DNA of 55,109 bases, filler included, from Dirinaria sp. TL-2023a (GCA_051941275.1; 4 parts of 4 records of this genome joined end to end with filler, not necessarily neighbours in it), one strand, 5' to 3'; counted from the first letter of the whole stretch, positions 13,744 through 54,867 are shown. The notes: generated from the letters alone by a model not told the origin. A program made the numbers and translations.

Positions 13744-13843
13744 NNNNNNNNNNNNNNNNNNNNNNNNNNNNNNNNNNNNNNNNNNNNTTAATTAATTAAN
13801 NNNNNNNNNNNNNNNNNNNNNNNNNNNNNNNNNNNNNNNNNNN
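13744..13843. other. Artificial contig-joining linker N44-TTAATTAATTAA-N44
   Basis: Exactly 100 nt; the central 12-mer has stop codons in all six frames; identical to the linkers at 27559 and 41337. Confidence 0.97.
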
Positions 13844-27558: not shown

Positions 27559-27658
27559 NNNNNNNNNNNNNNNNNNNNNNNNNNNNNNNNNNNNNNNNNN
27601 NNTTAATTAATTAANNNNNNNNNNNNNNNNNNNNNNNNNNNNNNNNNNNNNNNNNNNN
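27559..27658. other. Artificial contig-joining linker N44-TTAATTAATTAA-N44
   Basis: Same 100-nt structure as the other two linkers. Confidence 0.97.
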
Positions 27659-41336: not shown

Positions 41337-41436
41337 NNNNNNNNNNNNNNNNNNNNNNNNNNNNNNNNNNNNNNNNNNNNTTAATTAATTAANNNNNNNN
41401 NNNNNNNNNNNNNNNNNNNNNNNNNNNNNNNNNNNN
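41337..41436. other. Artificial contig-joining linker N44-TTAATTAATTAA-N44
   Basis: Same 100-nt structure as the other two linkers. Confidence 0.97.
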
Positions 41437-41970
41437 AAGTGGATAACTAGGGGGGGAGATTTGAGAGTGGTGTGGAGGAGGATTGATCATGAGTGGCGAG
41501 ATGATGAATATAAGAGGGATGAGAATGTAATCCAGGAAACTCGAAAATTGAGGAAATTGGCAGAGGTAATTTTCCACGAGTGGTGGAGTCATTTGAGGAG
41601 AAGTTAGGCTTTTGTATATAGTTTGAAGTATTAGGAGGGGACGTGGTGGAATTCTTGTCTCATAGAGATTAGAGGGGAATTTGAGGAGGAGGATGATGGG
41701 TGTTGGTATCTTACAAGGAGAATGGGACGAGAAACTTTACAGGGAAGATTGAACGATAGGGAAATGGACGTCTCTTTTACACACGGACTGCTAAGATATG
41801 ATGTAGCTATACTTCCACCGCTGCCATATGTTACGGTGAGTATTATATGCACCTATAAGCAATCAGCCATGGGGACGTTTTTTTTGTTCGATCGTAGAGG
41901 CGGTGATTATGAAAAAGCGCAGAATCATGCGTTCTAATGAGATTCTAATAGGGATCTAATTCTAAATGAG

Positions 41971-43777
41971 CTAAGACTTCGGTGCTAAGCTTTGCATATC
42001 CACGAGCTTTTGCATGTGGATGATCCATCGCTTTGCGAAAGCCTCTTCGGTGAACCGCTTGGCTGATGACCTTGCTCTGTGGCGCATTTGTAGAGTCTCT
42101 CGAGCCGACATTGAAAGTGCTTTTTCGAAGCCTTCAGCGAACTCCGACTCGTCGCTGGCGTGGAATCCTGCAAATGCCGCATTAACGAGATTCTGGTACT
42201 GTCATGACGGAGGCTTACCTGTCGGACCGCCAGCCCAATCTATCACGATATCTGCTTTCGGACCACCGCTATCATTGACAACACTGACGAGGCCGGCAGC
42301 TTGATACTCGACCACGCCGATACCAAAATGCTCGTTCCACATCCCGTTGACGCCAACCCAGCTTCTTCGTAGCCAGTCCAGAATTTCCGACCAAGGTGCA
42401 TCGCAGAGGAATTGAACACTCTCCCGAAGCTTGAGCTCGTGGGCGAGAAGTCGAAGATTGTATACTCTTGTGGCATCTTCGCTGTCCCGCACGCTCCCAA
42501 TGAGGACCAACTTTGCGCCTTCTGAAGCTTTCGAAGCACTGTCTGATGACGAATGGAGCATTTGAGCGAAGGCGCGCAGAATGAGCGGGTGGTTCTTCTC
42601 CGGGCGGAATTGCGCCACGTATAGCAGCGCTTTCTCCCTTCGAGCCTCGCTTGCCTCGCTGACTTCGATGGCTTGCTCGAGTTCTTCAACGGCAACTGGG
42701 GGGAACAGAACCTCGATGCCATATTTCTTTTGTCTCCTGATTCGCTTTGGGCCCCACAAGTGCTTGATGTGCGCTTGGGTCCACGATGAGTTAGTCATGA
42801 CAACATCAACGTCACCACCAACCCAGCTGTACATCCAGGCAAAAGCGTGCCAGTACCACCGCTTTACCGTGCCTCGCAGTCCTTTGCCGGCCCCAGCATT
42901 CAGCCCTTTACCAGCCTCCGCATCCAGAGAACCCAACATATCTGTAGAGATGGTCGGATAATGCACGTACGCCCCAGTGGGTATCCTTGGAAAAAACAAT
43001 CTGCAAAGCGCCAGTGTAAATGCATAACCCATGGTATCTATAAAAATGTCTGGAACGAGAAGTGAGAATGCGTCATAAGCCAAGACAAGCGATCCAAGAC
43101 TCTGGCCTAATAGAGTGAAATGTGGATACGTAGAGCTCAGGACATAATGACGTGTAGAGAGATAAAGAAAGACTACTGTCGGAGGGTGCAGTCGAATATT
43201 AAAACGGTTCTAACCCAACATCAGCTTGCTGACCGTGCTGCGGCTTTAGCACTATTGATCGTCGGCAGCTACCTTTACTCGCTCCAGGATGGCAGGTTTA
43301 GTGGCGTCGTGATCACCGGTGTACACAACACAGGTGGCCTTTGGCCATCGCTTCTGCGTGGCTCTGATGGCCGCCCAGAGGACTCGTTCACCGCCTCCAC
43401 CAGCGTTACTGATCTACCATGAGCACGCTATTGGAGAACCGAGTTCCATTTGAATGGACAAACCAAAATGGGTGGAAAAATCCTATTATCCCCTCCCAGT
43501 CATCATCGGATTGGCCACCAATTATATCGGATGTTGGACGGTGGCTTTCGACCTTCTCCCACTCTTCGTCCTCATGCTTTCCATTCTTGCGATAGAACGA
43601 CTCGACAGCTTTCTCCTCTATTTTGACGCGTGTCAGGATAGACTTTCTACGAGGAGCAGTCTTGCGTCTCAGATAGGAGCCGAAGGCTCTACCAGCGCTG
43701 TAGGCCAACCATTTGCCAAACAGAAGAGTGAGTAGGATCGCTAGAAGCGAGTTCCTAATATGAGCAGTGAGCTTCAT
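41971..43777 (-). CDS. ALG11: Alpha-1,2-mannosyltransferase Alg11 (GT4), 4 exons
   Basis: [93 protein letters not shown]; the start codon is less certain. Confidence 0.94.
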
Positions 43778-43926
43778 CTCAGTAGCCCCTTGCCATAATT
43801 TTTCTCCAACACCACTTTATTCTGTATGAGCTGAAGGTTCACGATGAATATGACAAGTCGCCTGGCACCCGATATACTAGTCCAATTTGGGCGTAAGCAG
43901 TGATTCAATGTCTTGGCAAAACACTT

Positions 43927-44193: not shown

Positions 44194-47169
44194 ATGTTTG
44201 TGTACAAGAGAGGTAAGCATGGCTACGGTATACGGATACACTGCTGGATTTGAAGATCGATGTTGTATTATTAGCGGCACTGTCGATGCAATCAGATAAC
44301 TATGTTGGCCTTGGGTATCTCATGTGCTAACTAGTACGATAGATGGCCGTAAAGAGCGCGTGCAATTCGACAAAATCACCGCTCGTGTGTCCAGGCTGTG
44401 CTACGGACTTGATTCGGATCATGTCGATGCTGCTGCCATTACCCAGAAAGTCATCTCAGGTGTATATCAAGGTGTGACTACTATCGAACTCGACAATCTG
44501 GTAAACTCGGAATACTCGTTCCCTTGCTCCAGTCTCTCTTGGCTAACACGTTCCTGATCAGGCTGCCGAAACTGCTGCGTATATGACAGTCACTCATCCT
44601 GACTATGCCATCCTTGCTGCTCGTATCGCGGTATCGAACCTCCACAAGCAGACAAAGAAACAATTTTCCTCCGTGGTCGACGACCTTTTTCATTATGTCA
44701 ACCCCATCAATCATAAAGCAGCCCCCATGATCTCCCCCGAAACACATGATACTGTCATGAAGCACGCAGAAGAATTGAACTCTGCTATCGTGTACGACCG
44801 AGATTTCAACTATCAATACTTTGGGTTCAAGACGTTGGAGCGCTCATACCTACTCCGCCTGAACGGCAAGGTTGCGGAGCGGCCACAACACATGATCATG
44901 CGCGTAGCTGTTGGCATCCACGGGGATGACATTGAGAAAGCCATTGAGACTTACAACTTGATGTCTCAGAGATGCTTCACACACGCTTCTCCAACGCTGT
45001 TCAATGCAGGCACTCCACAGCCTCAGTTGTCCTCCTGTTTCTTGATCGATATGAAAGAGGACAGTATCGAGGGCATCTATGACACCCTCAAGACCTGTGC
45101 TTTGATATCGAAGACTGCAGGAGGAATTGGCTTGAACATTCACCGTATCCGCGCAACAGGGTCGTACATTGGCGGCACGAACGGTTCTTCAAACGGCATT
45201 GTGCCTATGCTTCGCGTTTTCAACAACACTGCCCGATATGTCGACCAGGGTGGCAACAAGCGCCCGGGAGCTTTTGCAATTTACCTGGAGCCATGGCATG
45301 CAGACGTTTTCGAATTTCTAGATCTCCGTAAGAATCACGGCAAGGAGGAGGTCCGTGCTCGAGACCTTTTCTTTGCCCTCTGGGTACCGGATTTGTTTAT
45401 GAAGAGAGTTGAAGCCAACAAAGAATGGACACTCATGTGCCCTAATGAGTGTCCTGGACTTGCAGATGTGTATGGTGAGGAGTTCGAGGCACTTTATGAG
45501 CAGTGAGTAGCCGCTGCATTGGCTCGAACGTGTTTCCTAACGTGCCTGACAGATACGAAAAGGAAGGCCGTGGACGGAAAACGATCAAGGCTCAGAAACT
45601 ATGGTACTCGATCCTTGAGTCTCAGACCGAGACGGGAAATCCTTATATGCTCTACAAGGATGCTTGCAACCGCAAGAGTAACCAGAAGAACCTCGGGACC
45701 ATCCGAAGCTCCAATCTGTGCACTGAGATCATCGAGTACAGTGCGCCAGACGAGGTTGCTGTTTGTAACTTGGCATCTCTTGCACTGCCAACATTCGTGG
45801 ACATTCCTCGTGGCGAATACGACTTCGGTAGACTTCACGAGGTAACTCAAGTGCTTGTGCGGAACCTTAACAAGATCATCGAGATCAACCATTATCCTGT
45901 CGAAGAAGCGAGGAGAAGCAATTTCAGACATCGACCTATCGGATTGGGTGTCCAAGGGCTCGCGGATGCATTTCTTGCTCTTCGCCTGCCTTTCGACTCC
46001 CCGGAAGCAAAGTATCTCAACAAGCAAATTTTCGAGACCATTTATCACGCGGCCTTGACCGCATCCTGCGAGATTGCAAGCTCGCTCGGACCTTACGCCA
46101 CGTATGAAGGCTCCCCTGTCTCCCAAGGCATCCTACAGTATGACATGTGGAATGTCACGCCCACGGATCTCTGGGACTGGGATACACTCAAACAATCGAT
46201 TGCTAAGCACGGCGTTCGTAATAGTTTGCTTGTGGCTCCAATGCCTACCGCGTCTACTAGTCAAATCCTCGGCAACAATGAATGCTTCGAACCTTACACA
46301 TCCAACATATACTCTCGACGGGTCCTTGCCGGTGAATTCCAAGTTGTCAATCCCTGGCTTCTCAAAGACTTGGTTGACATGGGTCTCTGGAGCGAAAACA
46401 TGAAAAACCGCATCATTGCGGATGGAGGCTCGATTCAAAATATCCCCAACATACCAGCCGACATCAAAGCCCTCTACAAGACTGTCTGGGAGATATCCCA
46501 GCGTACCATTGTGCAGATGGCGGCCGACCGCGGTGCTTTCATTGACCAGAGCCAAAGCTTGAATATTCATATCAAAGAACCTACAATGGGCAAAATCACC
46601 TCGATGCACTTTGCAGGGTGGAAGCTGGGCCTCAAAACCGGCATGTATTACCTCCGCACTATGGCCGCTTCTGCGCCCATCCAATTCACCGTCGATCAAG
46701 AACAGCTCAAGGTCGCAGACACAAACATTGCGAGGGCTGGTGGGGTCAAGAAGCGTATGAGCGTCGGCTATAGCTCGTCGAACAGCCACAGCAGCGTCCC
46801 GAGACCGATGTATTTGCGCAAACCCTCGCAGGGCACCGAGATGTCTGCAGGAGGTATGCCAACCCCGTCAGCAACGCCACCTCCGCTAGAGAAGAAAGAG
46901 AACGAAACGATCAAGAACGAAATAAGCGAGAGCCCCAAGACGCTAGCCACTGACCCAGTAGGTACACCGATCAAAGAGGAGGATTTATCGGATGAGGACA
47001 AGGCCAAGCAAGAGGAAGATTCGAAGGGCGTGAGTGAGGATCGAGAGGGAGATATTTACGCGCAGCGGGTTTTGCAGTGTAAGTCGCTCTCCGGAGTGTA
47101 GGCAATAATACTAATTGGTGAGCAGGTAGTATCGAGAACAAAGAAGCGTGTGTGATGTGCAGCGGTTAG
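44194..47169 (+). CDS. RNR1: Ribonucleoside-diphosphate reductase large subunit (class Ia), 5 exons
   Basis: ATP cone [80 protein letters not shown]; last exon ends [12 protein letters not shown] (C-terminal CxxC). Confidence 0.98.
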
Positions 47170-48339
47170 GAAAAAGTGGGTTAGCATCTATGCCTACTGC
47201 AGTACTAATGGAATAAGAGGGAGAACAGCCACGCGGCTAGAGAAGGTAGTCAGCCAAGATCTGTCACTACACAAGTAAGGGGTTTTCTTTTCGTGGGCAT
47301 GAGGCATTCTTGGACAGGCTGGCATTTGTAGCAACAATCGAGAAACAGAGCATGGTTTTGATTGCTTGAGCTCCTTCCTTTCGGCCGCTCCATACTCTTG
47401 TTGCATGGATGCTCATGACGCACGCCCCTTGGCTTGTAAGTGAAGCAAGTCATATTTCCGGCATGCTATGCATTGAAAGCGAACCTAGCGAGGCAGAAGG
47501 AAACATTTTCCAAGATTTAACACCCGAAGTATATGTACCTTGAGGAAGACCTTGTTCGACAGCAAGCCGCCAATGCGTACTCAGTGCCGGAGCGCAGCTC
47601 TTTGGGTCGCTACGCTGCTTCCTTCTGTAGAAGATTGCTCACGGTTTACGTTTTGCTGTTGCAAGATACGATACCAGCCTCGAGAAAATCAAACAGGTTG
47701 GGATAAGGTATGATAGATCGACGATATGGGTTCATATTCCCTAAGCGAGCACAAGCGGCATAAAGTTTATTATGCCTTTCATAATAATAATGTTGGGTTA
47801 ATCTGCCCAGGGATTGGAGCAGGATGAGTGGGGTAGGGCTAAGAATGCGGTGGTGTGTTAAACCAGATGTAGTGTAGCCGATGACATCAATGGACTTTGC
47901 GTTCGTCAGCGAGTAAAGTACTCCGTACAGTAAGGCAGGCAAGCGATGAAGCGAGGCAAGGTAGATCGCCCGTCAGAGCTTGGCAGCTTGGGAGAGTTGG
48001 GAGACCCAATGAGGACTTGCACTAGACAACTGCCGGTGCTTTTGCACATCATCCGTTCTAGCCCCAGAGGGCTACACCGATAAGCACCTCAATGGAAAAA
48101 CACACACACGGCCAAGAGCTCGGTTGTCGGCTCAGCAATGGCGGAGACACAGCAGCGAATAGATTGCACCTTATACTTACAACCATCTCCATCTCCTCTT
48201 TTTGCCGCCCTGACCCTGATGTCTTCCCAAAGACACGCGGTTCCATAAATCGAGGGCACGGCCGGTGGACCAGACTCGAGAATGACCGCGATCGCCATAT
48301 GGACCGTATGACGGAGATCCAAGTGCTCAGAACGCGACG

Positions 48340-51168
48340 ATGGCTGGATCCGCCAGCCATGTCGAGAACAGAAGTTCAGACGTCTTGGGCGTCGACATTG
48401 CGGTCCTCTGTGTGTCCACGGTTTTCGTCATCTTACGCCTGGTATCGCGCATTGGTGTGGTGAAGAGGGTGACTCCGGACGACTACTTCATCATACTCGC
48501 ATGGGTTAGTGAGCACAATGGCACGCGTCCGATAGTCGGAATGGCTGGGCTGAATGATACACAGTTCATCGCTTTTGGCTTCTCTTTCTCGATCTGTTAC
48601 GGTACTTCGGTCGGACTTGGAAGACATGAAGTAGACGTGAAGCCGGAATGGCAGGAACCACTCAAGAAGGCGGAATATGCTTTTTCGGTACTCTATGTAG
48701 GCTATCCCGCTTATTGTTCCAGAAGTGGCATTAGCTGATACCATCAGAACCCTGCCTTGATGGCCACAAAAACTTCCATATGCCTCTTCTACCTTACCCT
48801 AGCCAAGAACCAGCGGGCTTTCAAATGGGCGACGCTGGTCACGCTTGCGGTCGTCAACGTCGCCGGTATCGCCTTGACATTCTTGAACATATTCCAATGT
48901 CACCCAGTGGGTGCTGCATTCGAACATATTGTATCCCCGGGACAGCACTGTACAGATATCATCACGATATACCTCTCCTCTGCACCTGTAAATATCGTCA
49001 CCGATCTTGCGCTCCTTTTCCTGCCGATGCCTATTTTGACGGCGATGCGCTTGCCTCGTAATGAGAAACTCATCTTGATTGTTACTTTCAGCTTTGGCGC
49101 TTTTGTTGCCGTAGTGGACGTGGTCAGGATTGCATATCTGGAATCGGCAACACTGACGCGGCTGCAAAATAGCACGGAAGATGCCAATAAGAATGACCAG
49201 GGGGACTTTTCTTGGATAGCGTCGTTATCTTTCATGTGGTCTGCGGTGGAGGTGCATGTCGGTATCATTTGCGCATGCGTTCCAGGAGTCAAACCGCTCG
49301 CCGCCAAGGTCTTTCCCAGCTTACTGGGCAAAATCAAACACTCCAAAGATCCATCTCGTAATTCTTACGGCCCAGAACATGCTTCACCCCCAACAACAGC
49401 GCCTCGGAGACCGAATCACATACAACCTCAAACGCCCCCGGAGTCTCCCACCGCTCCGCGCCACCTGGCAGTCAACACTGCAGCTCACCAGAATGGGAAC
49501 ATGGAATCACTCGACTTTGTAACTACACCGGAGGGCGGGCGCAATCGAGAGTCCAAAAGGCAAGAGGAGGATCTTGATATCATGGACTTCCTCACTACTC
49601 CTGACACGCCAACTACCATGAGAAAGACTGACACGGCTTTCACAGCTGATACCTGGAAATCTAGATCTGCCAGTTTGACACCGTATGACTTTGTGAATAT
49701 GAACGGATCGAAAAGCCTGGTCAAAAGGAGTAATCGAGAATCTTTGGCACCAATCGCTTTTGTGACTATACTGTTTTTCTTATGGGGTTTCGCCTACGGC
49801 CTACTCGATGTCTTGAATTCTCAATTCCGAATCATTGTTCAAATGAGTAATGGACAGTCTATCGGCTTACACTCTGCATATTACGGCGCCTACTTCGTCG
49901 CACCGCTTACATTTGGAAGAATCGTGTTCCAGAAGTGCGGTTTTAAGTTCACGTTCATTGTGGGACTATGCGTCTACGGGATCGGAACGCTCGTCTTCTG
50001 GCCTTCGGCCGTACTCGCGTCGTTCCCAGCGTTCCTCATCTCTAACTTCATCATCGGCTTGGGAGTCGCCACGCTTGAACTTGCTGGCAATCCATTCATC
50101 GCCCTCTGTGGCCCTCCTGAGTATGCCGAGGTTCGTCTGAACATATCGCAGGCTATCCAAGCTATTGGCACTGTCGTGTCGCCGGTCTTGGCAAAGAAGG
50201 TTCTTTTTCGCAGTGTGCTCGACGCACCGTCGCTCATCGACGTTCAGTGGGCATACCTTGGCATAGCATTGTTCGTTGTAATCCTCGCCCTTGTCTTCTA
50301 TTACGTGCCTCTGCCAGAAGCATCGGACAATGATCTGCAAGATGTTGCTCTCAAGAATCTGGAAGCCAACATCAGGAGAGTCGGACCGTTCCCGGTCATC
50401 TACGTCACACTGGCCTTAGGGCTGTTCTCCAATTTCTGTTACGTGGGCGGTCAAGAGGCTGTGTCTACACAATTTCAAAATTACGTCGCTATTGTCAAGC
50501 CAGAGTAAGGCCTCTGGCCACTGCACAACAGGTTCAGGGCTAATTGATGGTCTAGATCGGACATTGGCCCGTTTAATTACCAAGCTGTAGGTCATACGTG
50601 TTTTGCTGCGGGCAGGTTTCTCTCAGCGTTTGCTGGGCTGCTCATCAAGCCGAGGTGGATACTGCTCTTCCTGTACGCGGGCGTCATTGTCACATCGGCA
50701 CTTGCCATGAGTCTTGAGGGATATTCGGGCGTGGCCATGATCGTCCTGGTCCTGCTATTTGAATCGGGCATCTTCTCCATCATCTTCGCCATGTGCATTC
50801 GGGGCCTTGGCACACGTACCAAATTCGGTTCGGTGGCGCTCACTGCTGCAACTTCTGGCGGTGCTATAATTCCAGCCATTATGAGCGCTGTCTCTGACCA
50901 CCGCGGGCTGCGATACTCGTTGGCTGTCGCCGTAGCGGTCTTTGCATTTGGAGCCTTGCTACCTATCTACGTGTGCGCTGTGCCCGCCGCGAAGAATCAG
51001 GTCGATCCTATCCATGCGCCTCACCGACGTCGTGAAAGGGAGCGACGGCCTTCGACGCCGCATCGCACCAATCACATCCTCGGTGCGCTGAAGCACAGGA
51101 ACAAAGTCTCGTCAGATATGCCAAGCGTAGACCATGTGGAAAGCAATGCGGAGAAAGAAGCTGGATGA
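48340..51168 (+). CDS. Fusion protein: PTH11-like (fungal rhodopsin-like 7-TM, no CFEM) domain plus FucP-family MFS sugar permease, 4 exons
   Basis: N-half: VILRLVSR...DDYFIILAW, GLGRH, TKTSICLFYL, FQCHPV, NIVTDLALLFLPMP, WSAVEVHVGIICACVP. C-half in the same exon and frame: LFFLWGFAYGLLDVLN, YYGAYF, LELAGNPFIALCGPPEYAEVRLNISQ, FCYVGGQE, FESGIFSIIFA, SGGAIIP. Confidence 0.88.
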
Positions 51169-51888
51169 GAAAGTCGAGCGACCATTTCCTCCTTATTAAC
51201 TTTATGCTTTGCAGTATCTTCAGCGCGGCGTTGGCGGGCATCAATCAGGGTTCAACTGGTGCGTCACACCAGATACTATTACGCATAGAGAGTCTTTCAC
51301 CGGGTGCTACCATATATATGACTCTTTGTCATGCGAACCGGATGACTTGCAGATCTCACTCAGCAATGCTTCTAACTGTACGTGTACTTGGGTACCGTGC
51401 TATTTACCGAATACGGTTCGCGGTGTCCGGGGCGTCCTGTCCAGATTGGAATGGCTTGCCTCGCTTGCATTATCTGTCATCCAGGAAAAAAAGTAATTCT
51501 AGATTAATATCCGCTAAGGGCAGAGATTGCGCAAATCGCTGGTAATTCCCACCAATCCCCGGCCTCAATCGAAGCCGAGTGCGGAGTGCCAAGCGCGCCA
51601 AGCCCCAACGATTGCTAATCGCATCGCATCACTGAAAACCGCAAGAGGAAATTCCTCCCCCCCACACTCCACACTCTTCAAACATCCCCTCACTGATTTC
51701 TGATTAGCAGGTACAGTAGTAGTACAGTAGTAAGTACTCGCTCTAAGCTACCGACCTTACTCTTTCCTCTTTCCTCTTTCCTCTTCTTTCTTCTTTTTCC
51801 ATACTTCTCCCCAACCACCTCCCCTGCCATTCTCCTTCCAACCCTCTGCGGCGACTGGCTACACGATCGCCAAATCTCTAACCGGGCT

Positions 51889-52850
51889 ATGGCCAACTTT
51901 GCTGGTCGAAGAGCACCCAATGTGTCGCAGTACATTGCCAATCTCAACGTCGTGCAGCCCAAGGACGACAATACTTTCCACCCGGATGAGACGTTCGACT
52001 TTGAACATGATTTGAACATGTTCACCAATACCGAGTTCCTGGATTTTTCCGTTGACGAGAGTATCGAGTTTAATACTTCGGGCCCGGAGCAATTGCCGCT
52101 AGCAGAGGCTGCCGCGAGACAGGACCAGCAGCATGGACGGCCGGGCTTAGCCAAAAGTATGCCTTTTCACTCCGTTGATTACCATCTGATGAGCATGCCT
52201 CGGGACAATGCGTTGTGATTTTGATGAGCTCCTCAGCTTCGCGACATCTTGACACCCCGCAAGGTCTTTTCAATGTACATGCGCACGCCATTTCTTGGAG
52301 ATGCTAATTGTTCCCACCTATAGCCGATTATGAATATAACATGACCGAGCTTATGTCCCCAACCTCCATGACCTCCGTCCCTGCAGCGACCGCCAGCCCT
52401 ACCTACCCACAAAATGCTCGTCCTCTGCCCCTCAACGTCTCAACTGCCAATCCCAATCTCGATCCTTCCCTCTATAATGCGCCCGCGCACTCTCCATCGT
52501 CTGCCGCTTCTCCCACAAACGCCAAGAGATTCGAGGAAGACACCAAGGCGGCTGCTGAAGAAGATAAACGACGTCGCAACACCGCTGCCTCGGCCCGTTT
52601 CCGAGTGAAGAAGAAGCAGCGAGAACAGGCGCTGGAGAGTTCCGTGAAGGAAATGACAAACAAGATATCGGCGATGGAGAAGCGTATTGGTCAATTGGAG
52701 CAAGAGAATGGATTCTTGCGAGATCTGGTGACGGAGAAATCGGATAAGGAGGGCATGGCGGAGAAATATCGCAAGTTCAGGAAGGCCAGTGAGGAGACCG
52801 ACGATAGCCCAAGGAGTACTGGTCGTGGGAAGAAAGGCGTGGGAACGTGA
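51889..52850 (+). CDS. metR: bZIP sulfur-metabolism activator MetR/CYS-3, 2 exons (intron 52157-52323)
   Basis: N-terminal GRRAPNVSQYIANLN and LNMFTNTEFLDF; bZIP AAEEDKRRRNTAASARFRVKKKQREQALE followed by a zipper ending LEQENGFLRDLVTEK. Confidence 0.88.
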
Positions 52851-53373: not shown

Positions 53374-54867
53374 ATGCTGACTAGATTTCGCTCCTTCCAC
53401 CGAGGTATGTCCGTCTATACATAGCTTTGGTAGCTATACCCAAATTCCCCGAAACTCTACCTATATGAACTCTATCAGATTGTATGAGGCGCAGACTCTA
53501 CTTGAGCTCATCTGTCATAGTAATACAGATGGCCGCAAACGCGAGTTCGACTATTGCTGGGCCAACCTCGTCATCATCAGCAGTCCAAGGACAGACGGCG
53601 GCTATGGTCATGGACAGGCCCAAATTCGTAGACGTGGGTCAGCATAAGTTCCAAAGAGGACCATCCAAAAGTCCAAAAGCTCATTTGATGCATCCAGGTT
53701 GGCATCAACCTCAGCGACCCTGTTTTCCGGGGCGTCTACCACGGCAAGCAAGCACATGACGACGATTTGGACGATGTGGTCAAGCGGGCCGCAAATGCAG
53801 GCTGCGTCAAGCTTATGGTCACGGGCTCTGATCTAGAAGAGAGCAGGAAGGCGGTGCAGTTGTCGAGAGATCATTGTGCGTCCTTTTGGCCCTACATCTA
53901 CTACTTCATTACGCGCGTCGACATGAATTTCTGATTGACAACTACAGCGGGCCGTTGTTACGCTACCGTCGGTGTTCATCCGTGTTCTGCCAAAAGCTTT
54001 GACACGCATCCCGGTGGAGACTCTGCGCTGCTCAAGGAGCTGGAGGATCTGGCAATCCAAGCCAAGAAAGCAGGTCTTGCAACGGCATTTGGCGAGATCG
54101 GTCTGGACTACGATCGGCTTTTCCTCTGTCCGAAGGAACAGCAACTGAAATACTTTGAAGCCCAGCTCGACCTCGCAGTGAAAGTGCAATTGCCGCTGTT
54201 CCTCCACTCGCGGGCCGCTCATGCGGATTTTGTGCGGTTGTTGAAGCCACGGTTGGAACTGCTGCCGAAGGGAGGCCTAGTGCATAGCTTTACGGGGACG
54301 ATGGAGGAGATGCGGGATCTGGTTGGGGCAGGGCTGATGTTGGGGGTCAACGGGTGTAGTTTGAAAACGGAGGAGAACTTGGAGGTCGTGAAGGAGATGG
54401 AACTGGGGAGGATCATGCTCGAGACGGATGGGCCGTGGGTATGCCTGTTGTTCCCTTTTGACCCCTTTTTGCAGGGGTAGAGTACTGGTCACATGTTTGG
54501 TCTGAAGGTGTACTGATATGACCCACTGATACACCGCCAGTGCGAGATTCGGCCCTCTCACGCCTCGTCCAAGTACCTGGAAGGCGCCCCACCGTTGCCG
54601 AGAGCGGTCAAGAAGGAGAAATGGGAACGAGGCTTAATGGTCAAAGGCCGGAACGAGCCGGCCACGATCACTCACGTTGCCCAAGTGGTTGCCAACGTCA
54701 AAGGTTTGCCCGTGGAGCAGGTTTGTCAAGCGTAGGTCTCCCGATTCCACGATCTGTCCATACCGTATATACTTTAAATAATTAATTGCTAATGGCATAT
54801 GGCTAGGACATGGGACAATGCTGTTCGAATGTTTGGGCTGGGAGAGGTCGATATAATAGAATGTTAG
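53374..54867 (+). CDS. TatD-family deoxyribonuclease (TATDN1-like), multi-exon; alternative start at 53529
   Basis: FVD|VGINLSDPVFRG, YATVGVHP, AFGEIGLDYDRL, LPLFLHSR, VHSFTG, GVNGCSLKT, LETDGPW|CEIRPSH, VKGRNEP; canonical introns. The upstream exon 53374-53404 is inferred. Confidence 0.9.

Follow-up and report, generated by a model that had tools for sequence, protein, structure and literature searches.

What would a fungus do with a receptor-like membrane domain and a sugar permease in one polypeptide, and does such a protein exist? The question is raised by a gene at 48340-51168 on the plus strand of the window, by which we mean the whole 55,109-nt stretch of Dirinaria DNA analysed here. 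The initial annotation had read it as a PTH11-like seven-helix (7TM) domain fused to a FucP-type permease of the MFS superfamily. The fusion proves to be real, widespread and apparently unstudied, and its architecture is visible in automatic annotation.

One spliced frame for two domains

The complete gene has four exons and encodes 888 codons plus a TGA at 51166-51168, with 0 internal stops. Exon 1 (48340..48504) supplies the start codon, TM1 and the beginning of TM2 of the 7TM domain, and exon 2 (48565..48696) the remainder of TM2 and the beginning of TM3. Exon 3 (48748..50504), a single stop-free frame contained in a 589-codon open frame, runs through 7TM helices 3-7, the linker and permease helices 1-7; its boundaries as an uninterrupted exon had been placed exactly by the initial annotation. 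Exon 4 (50556..51168) carries permease helices 8-12, the C-terminal tail and the stop codon.

Transcripts come from four RNA runs (X1-X4) of one lichen sample, from a relative about 96% identical to the window, and take the form of assembled contigs, not reads. Introns 1 (48505..48564, 60 nt) and 2 (48697..48747, 51 nt), both GT..AG, are spliced out in the contigs of 4/4 runs. Intron 3 (50505..50555, 51 nt, GT..AG) is spliced out in 3/4, X4 having no cover there; its joint is printed one base off in the contigs, and both placements fit equally. The X1 contig of 2662 nt runs from 48205 to 51029 with 96 differences and all three introns gone, the X2 contig of 2620 nt runs from the leader into exon 4 with introns removed, and the X3 contig covers 48195-49760, so that in X1 and X2 one contig reaches from the leader through the 7TM domain and the linker over most of the permease. 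The linker, where a break in the transcript might have been sought, is thus crossed by continuous spliced RNA contigs of this relative. Among the changed codons 25/32 are synonymous (35 coding rows among the 40 listed of 202 difference rows).

Could the fusion nevertheless be a gene-merging artefact? The initial annotation had argued that it was not, and the stop-free frame of exon 3 with its domain matches, the spliced RNA contigs across both halves, and the presence of both domains in the orthologues listed rule the artefact out. The fusion is one spliced reading frame with both domains intact. The closest record, P0001, which bears the name of the lichen-forming fungus Dirinaria sp., matches exon 3 with 100% identity; its 865-aa model is shorter than the RNA-supported one, by 3 residues where exons 2 and 3 meet and by 20 where exon 4 begins.

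Some features of the transcript deserve mention in their own right. The 5' leader (48195..48339) lies under RNA contigs that start at 48195, 48205 and 48230, and it contains short upstream ORFs. Upstream ATGs are found at 48219, 48282, 48299 and 48308; those at 48219 and 48282 open two 9-codon uORFs, and an out-of-frame ORF from 48299/48308 to 48463 overlaps the main start codon. The uORFs of the leader may damp translation. A second, more divergent set of RNA contigs (about 88-90% identical) covers 50593-51183 in exon 4, which suggests that another related fungus in the same sample expresses the gene.

The fusion gene (contig G000:C664) stands between the ribonucleotide reductase large subunit (44300-47170, plus strand) and a two-exon bZIP gene (51890-52850, plus strand), with a TatD nuclease beyond (53600-54760, plus strand). 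The N-terminus of the bZIP protein resembles, as we judge it, the MetR/Cys-3 sulphur regulators, and the minus-strand gene at 41900-43820 is presumably an ALG11-type mannosyltransferase. The reductase, the nuclease and the presumed mannosyltransferase are ordinary housekeeping genes, the neighbourhood is not a biosynthetic cluster, and a clue to the substrate, sought among the ribonucleotide reductase, bZIP and TatD genes, was not found there. Runs of N lie at 13744-13843, 27559-27658 and 41337-41436; because the window consists of contigs joined end to end, gene order across these runs is meaningless.

The two halves and the linker

The 7TM domain occupies 48370..49323 (plus strand), about residues 11-291. 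The exon-3 frame matches PF20684 (Fung_rhodopsin) over profile positions 68-236 with E 4.2e-45 and 154.6 bits against a cutoff of 27, and exons 1-2 supply the rest of the domain; in the orthologue P0036, profile positions 1-236 of 237 are covered. With a score so far above cutoff, the proposed PTH11-like nature of the N-terminal half holds. TM1 begins about 11 residues past the Met, and there is no match to a CFEM domain. Two invariant extracellular cysteines are encoded at 48898 and 48949, and there is an invariant Arg. The 7TM half is conserved as well as the permease or slightly better: identities to P0001 in three groups of proteins are 73 versus 70%, 51 versus 47%, and 41 versus 41%. The Pfam name suggests a photoreceptor. 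Retinal-binding rhodopsins are recognised by a Schiff-base Lys in their seventh helix; here that helix is free of Lys in its membrane part and has it at the cytoplasmic end alone, and a photoreceptor is ruled out by this absence.

What does the 7TM half look like? A model of P0207, a 7TM-plus-linker fragment, has seven helices, and the closest fold is that of the fungal class D GPCR Ste2 (Z 17.2, rmsd 4.2, 247 residues aligned), which leads bitter-taste receptors, microbial rhodopsin and designed bundles by only about 2 Z. Other matches are non-GPCR seven-helix proteins such as the adiponectin receptor and microbial rhodopsins, and a Foldseek search with the 7TM model returned nothing at E 0.001 or better. 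As modelled, the 7TM half is GPCR-like in fold. The fusion resembles Magnaporthe oryzae Pth11 and the Pth11-like proteins (GPCR class XIV, PF20684) in the PF20684 domain, the seven helices and this fold, but unlike Pth11 it has no CFEM domain and its C-tail runs on into a whole permease. The genome of the window has about 160 matches to PF20684, among which the 7TM half of the fusion scores best. Found in a 27.7-Mb lichen-fungus assembly, these are exon-wise matches and not gene counts; taken at sequence level, they would indicate a large Pth11-like expansion outside the plant pathogens.

The permease half (49735..50991, plus strand) is an MFS domain of the FucP/RhtA (FHS) type with 12 helices. 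The exon-3 frame matches MFS_1 with E 1e-11, and exon 4 supplies the rest of the domain. The top NCBIfam match is TIGR00885 (fucP), for which the exon pieces, scanned separately, reach 119 and 44 bits, below a cutoff of 280.4 that was set for bacterial FucP equivalogs. E. coli FucP is the best match both in sequence (E 1.4e-36) and in fold, and in this respect the first reading was right. The equivalents of FucP D46 (here D453), E135 (here E543), R154, Q159 and R312 are encoded on the plus strand at 49807, 50077, 50134, 50149 and 50614, and a Glu of TM7 that is specific to the fusion at 50455. Set beside FucP (PDB 3O7Q/3O7P; FHS, TC 2.A.1.7), the fusion keeps the equivalents of W38, E135, R154, Q159, Q274 and R312, but it is only about 26% identical, D46 is variable, and a 7TM domain has been added at the N-terminus. 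It also has Gln for N162 and mostly Phe for Y365, as does the stand-alone fungal paralogue.

How well have these residues been kept? The scoring took in 215 fused proteins and, for comparison, 120 stand-alone paralogues, out of over 520; rows with MFS cover below 85% were excluded, and in the fused set also those with 7TM cover below 50%. Among the 215 fused proteins E135 is kept in 207, R154 in 214, R312 in 207, W38 in 200, Q159 in 200, Q274 in 198 and Y270 in 194; in the 50 closest orthologues the first six of these sites are kept in 48-50. The Asp46 equivalent is present in 73/215 fused proteins versus 120/120 stand-alone ones, a set which is no matched control because it is far less diverged (80-91% identity). 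By group, Asp46 is found in 23/50 close orthologues, in 50/130 others and in 0/35 Tremellomycetes. Its substitutes in the fused proteins are Asn, Gly, Ser, Gln, Ala and Phe, and on the tree the position has changed at least 18 times, versus 3-9 times for five other sites. The window's own copy (D453) retains the Asp, as do most named Dothideomycete and Aspergillus/Penicillium copies. In 5/5 genus- or species-matched pairs the fused MFS domain is 41-48% identical to that of the window and has Asn, while the stand-alone protein shows 83-87% identity and has Asp; the fused MFS evolves much faster than its stand-alone paralogue. The TM7 Glu is present in 200/215 fused proteins, where 120/120 stand-alone ones have Val, and from this pattern it could be a substitute proton site.

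According to the available part of PMC3824880, Asp46 is essential for proton-driven transport and Glu135 is involved in substrate recognition. The earlier description of the permease as a sugar/H+ symporter therefore needs division: homology to FucP and the kept E135 agree with it, but with Asp46 in 73/215 the permease half is, across the family, probably not a plain sugar/H+ symporter. Fungal members of the FHS family are on record, as Aspergillus niger RhtA and Neurospora crassa SUT-28 (NCU05897) are L-rhamnose transporters in the accessible text of PMC5161314 and PMC7084071; the fusion shares with them a fungal FucP-domain permease, whereas RhtA and SUT-28 are stand-alone. One other FucP-like gene is found in the genome of the window, P0405, a stand-alone protein of 502 aa that is 49% identical to the fused MFS and is a candidate RhtA-like L-rhamnose transporter. 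P0405 is intronless, lies on G000:C284 (L002 877-2415, minus strand), and is 76-88% identical across the Pezizomycotina matches listed.

Between the halves lies a disordered linker at 49324..49734 (plus strand; residues 292-428), with Asp-Phe motifs at 49513, 49585 and 49684, placed on the cytoplasmic side by the topology of the 7TM and MFS domains. It is rich in Pro, Ser and Thr, as had been noticed at the start (33% versus 19% for the whole protein), but its length is 137 aa instead of the 150 or so then proposed. Across the fused proteins its length ranges from 25 to 224 aa. An aromatic-Asp-Phe-Val motif stands right before the permease in 139/215 fused proteins and in 0/120 stand-alone ones. 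The linker has no in-frame stop and its frame is open in every close orthologue among the matches listed; in the linker windows of homologues, no conserved Met and no cleavage-like site was evident.

Do the two halves pack against each other? The 7TM domain ends, and the MFS domain begins, on the inside, so that the topologies are compatible. The AlphaFold model of the orthologue P0036 (mean pLDDT 82.7, 688/893 residues at 70 or above, pTM 0.81) has 7 + 12 membrane helices, as read from its helix list, and a disordered linker, which bears out the early proposal of a single polypeptide of about 19 TM helices. Because the permease makes up under half of the chain, we infer from the pTM of 0.81 an inter-domain interface placed with confidence, and hence that the domains of P0036 are modelled as placed together; pTM speaks for packing only indirectly, and the ESM Atlas model of the same protein reaches no more than 0.64. 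Covariation between the domains (215 rows, effective number 121) put 3 inter-domain pairs in the top 50, with no coherent patch, in a signal that is noisy and partly gap-driven.

Range and descent of the fusion

How far does the fusion reach? In homologue searches run at default lengths, the exon-3 query found both domains in 120/120 matches listed (2388 matches among 8000 candidates scored). At 50% identity, 150 representatives comprise 72 with both domains, 57 with the permease only and 21 with the 7TM only, and the single-domain records that were examined are mostly truncated gene calls. The fusion persists to about 31-35% identity across fungal classes, and three ESM Atlas clusters (60, 184 and 97 members) share its architecture. 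By the usual placement of their genera, the named fused records belong to the Lecanoro-, Eurotio-, Dothideo-, Leotio-, Sordario- and Pezizomycetes. The suspicion that the architecture occurs in other filamentous ascomycetes was well founded, as fused records are found across the Pezizomycotina, and so was the remark on their annotation: source names are L-fucose permease, MFS transporter, rhodopsin-domain protein and hypothetical protein, mostly transporter or hypothetical.

The range does not end there. With Cryptococcus depauperatus as query, both domains were found in 111/120 matches listed, and 33/120 bear Tremellomycete names, from the genera Cryptococcus, Kwoniella, Saitozyma, Naematelia, Vanrija, Cutaneotrichosporon, Cryptotrichosporon and Filobasidium; many of these copies lie on megabase contigs. 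No other basidiomycete or yeast names occur among the matches listed for this query (8000 candidates scored). The Pth11-like class is confined to the Pezizomycotina, and absent from Tremellomycetes, in the portions of PMC12842992 and PMC1088943 available to us, and the Tremellomycete copies contradict this published range. The fusion is present five times in Saitozyma podzolica (P0302, P0303, P0312, P0314 and P0320) and twice in each of Kwoniella pini and K. dendrophila.

What path might account for this distribution? Trees built separately for the MFS and 7TM domains agree on the class-level groups and on a single Tremellomycete clade, so the halves have travelled together. The fusion is ancient, with copies across the Pezizomycotina and in the Tremellomycetes. 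In the MFS tree the Tremellomycete clade falls inside the Pezizomycotina (SH-aLRT 88), and horizontal transfer of the fusion to the Tremellomycetes is suggested by that tree; the AU test does not reject a tree with monophyletic Pezizomycotina (p 0.233), and in the 7TM tree the Tremellomycete clade has another position.

Split forms were looked at one by one. The 7TM-only records P0207, P0222, P0232, P0238, P0254 and P0265 break off around the first permease helix and seem to be prematurely ended gene calls. P0176 has an N-terminus of the stand-alone type and a permease that is identical to the full fusion P0527 from TM1 on, and is probably an assembly chimera. Two records labelled Orbiliomycetes are of another kind: P0197 is a permease of the fused type without the 7TM domain, and P0264 has a related 7TM domain with a 530-aa low-complexity tail and without a permease. 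The two come from nematode-trapping genera, where the fusion may truly have split or not yet have formed, or where the gene models may be broken. Both halves are kept in the 120/120 close matches listed, a result qualified by these possible split forms.

Sensing, transport and the alternatives

Why should a receptor-like domain be tied to a permease? Since the permease half has often lost its proton-coupling residue, its role may be to detect sugar and not to transport it. The reading that we favour, tentatively and at somewhat less than an even chance, is that the fusion is a candidate sugar sensor made of a single chain, whose permease would bind sugar, with no need to pump it, and act on an orphan receptor half. 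The MFS half would bind a monosaccharide, perhaps a deoxy-sugar such as L-rhamnose if the characterised fungal FHS members are a guide, and would carry it, if at all, without need for proton coupling of the Asp46 type. Its change of shape would be passed over the membrane interface to the Pth11-like half, which would signal inward, probably, in line with what has been proposed for Pth11, via a heterotrimeric G protein, and the conserved stand-alone paralogue would see to bulk uptake. The window's copy, with its Asp retained, may still co-transport protons. What speaks for a sensor, at the level of sequence, is that the cavity residues are kept while the proton-coupling Asp is repeatedly replaced. 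Against it, the loss of Asp46 fits a uniporter equally well, and the residue is retained by the window's copy and many others.

The same facts can be turned around. The protein might be a working permease, a uniporter or a symporter that uses another acidic residue, with the 7TM half as a built-in regulator that gates it or controls its trafficking or turnover according to a ligand of its own, so that information would flow from receptor to transporter. The retained cavity and gating residues, the Asp46 of the window's copy and many others, the conserved extra Glu in TM7, the predicted packing of the domains and the short conserved motifs of the linker are what one would expect of such a protein. 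Against it stand the conserved stand-alone paralogue already present in this genome, the much faster divergence of the fused MFS, and the variety of residues (Asn, Gly, Ser, Gln, Ala and Phe) tolerated in place of Asp46; on balance we hold a regulated permease, the main rival of the sensor, to be somewhat less likely than it. Are the halves coupled at all? Two independent modules, tethered for co-expression or co-localisation and with allosteric coupling absent, would suit a disordered linker of such variable length (25 to 224 aa) and the possible Orbiliomycete split forms (P0197 permease only, P0264 7TM only), but the persistence of the fusion to about 31-35% identity across classes and the pTM of 0.81 make mere tethering improbable.

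It is also conceivable that the 7TM half is no receptor but a membrane accessory or a small-molecule conduit, the fusion being a two-part transport unit. Some PF20684 proteins sit in biosynthetic clusters, one homologue is labelled a biosynthetic-cluster protein, the seven-helix fold matches include proteins that are not GPCRs (adiponectin receptor, microbial rhodopsins), and 4.2% of Pth11-like genes adjoin clusters according to the part of PMC12842992 available. Since the top fold match is the fungal GPCR Ste2, the accessible text of PMC13308352 ties the class to cAMP and MAPK signalling, and the neighbouring genes here form no biosynthetic cluster, we consider an accessory decidedly improbable. 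The gene might finally give two products, with an internal start or cleavage in the linker yielding a separate receptor and permease. The linker is long and poorly conserved and has internal Met codons, and internal starts cannot show in assembled RNA contigs; its frame is open in all close orthologues among the matches listed, continuous RNA contigs cross it, and the linker windows show neither a conserved Met nor anything like a cleavage site, so that two products seem very improbable indeed.

The sensor reading can be carried further, to a covalent GPCR-transporter in which an orphan Pth11-class receptor would use a tethered, proton-uncoupled permease as its module for ligand binding and read the alternating access of this permease into G-protein signalling, together with an ancient horizontal transfer by which the Tremellomycete ancestor would have received the whole unit from early Pezizomycotina. 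We regard this combined proposal as speculative and, taken whole, unlikely. Sensors derived from transporters are familiar: yeast Snf3/Rgt2, the Neurospora CDT transceptors, the bacterial UhpC-UhpB pair, and symporter-kinase fusions such as CbrA. The fusion, in the proposed sensor reading, would be like them in that a carrier fold detects its substrate and reports to a signalling partner. To our knowledge none of Snf3/Rgt2, CDT, UhpC-UhpB and CbrA is fused to a seven-helix receptor fold.

If the coupling is true, the fusion would represent a receptor-transporter design for which we found no description in the literature searched. No account of a Pth11-permease fusion was found in the open full-text literature, whose supplementary GPCR lists may contain orthologues without comment, and the view that the architecture has had no functional characterisation agrees with that search. 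A Pth11-MFS fusion goes unmentioned in the accessible portions of PMC5526305, PMC4683645, PMC12842992, PMC6652019, PMC5425790, PMC1088943, PMC3664084, PMC13308352, PMC3824880, PMC7084071 and PMC5161314, and two preprints on modular rhodopsins (10.1101/2025.06.26.661701 and 10.64898/2026.05.25.727616), in the parts available, mention neither MFS, permease nor Pth11. The matter has some weight, as Pth11-like proteins are described as the most abundant class of fungal GPCRs (PMC12842992, available text) and most fungal GPCRs as having no known agonist (PMC13308352, available text). With a Pth11-like member joined to a permease from a family of known sugar substrates, the candidate ligands are few, transport can be read out in yeast, and nature supplies an Asp/Asn contrast, so that Pth11-like sensing and G-protein coupling can be tested directly. 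Nor need the permease be the only partner of this domain: a 52-member cluster in the ESM Atlas joins CFEM, PF20684 and GMC oxidoreductase domains, and is either another PF20684 fusion or a recurrent merging of gene models.
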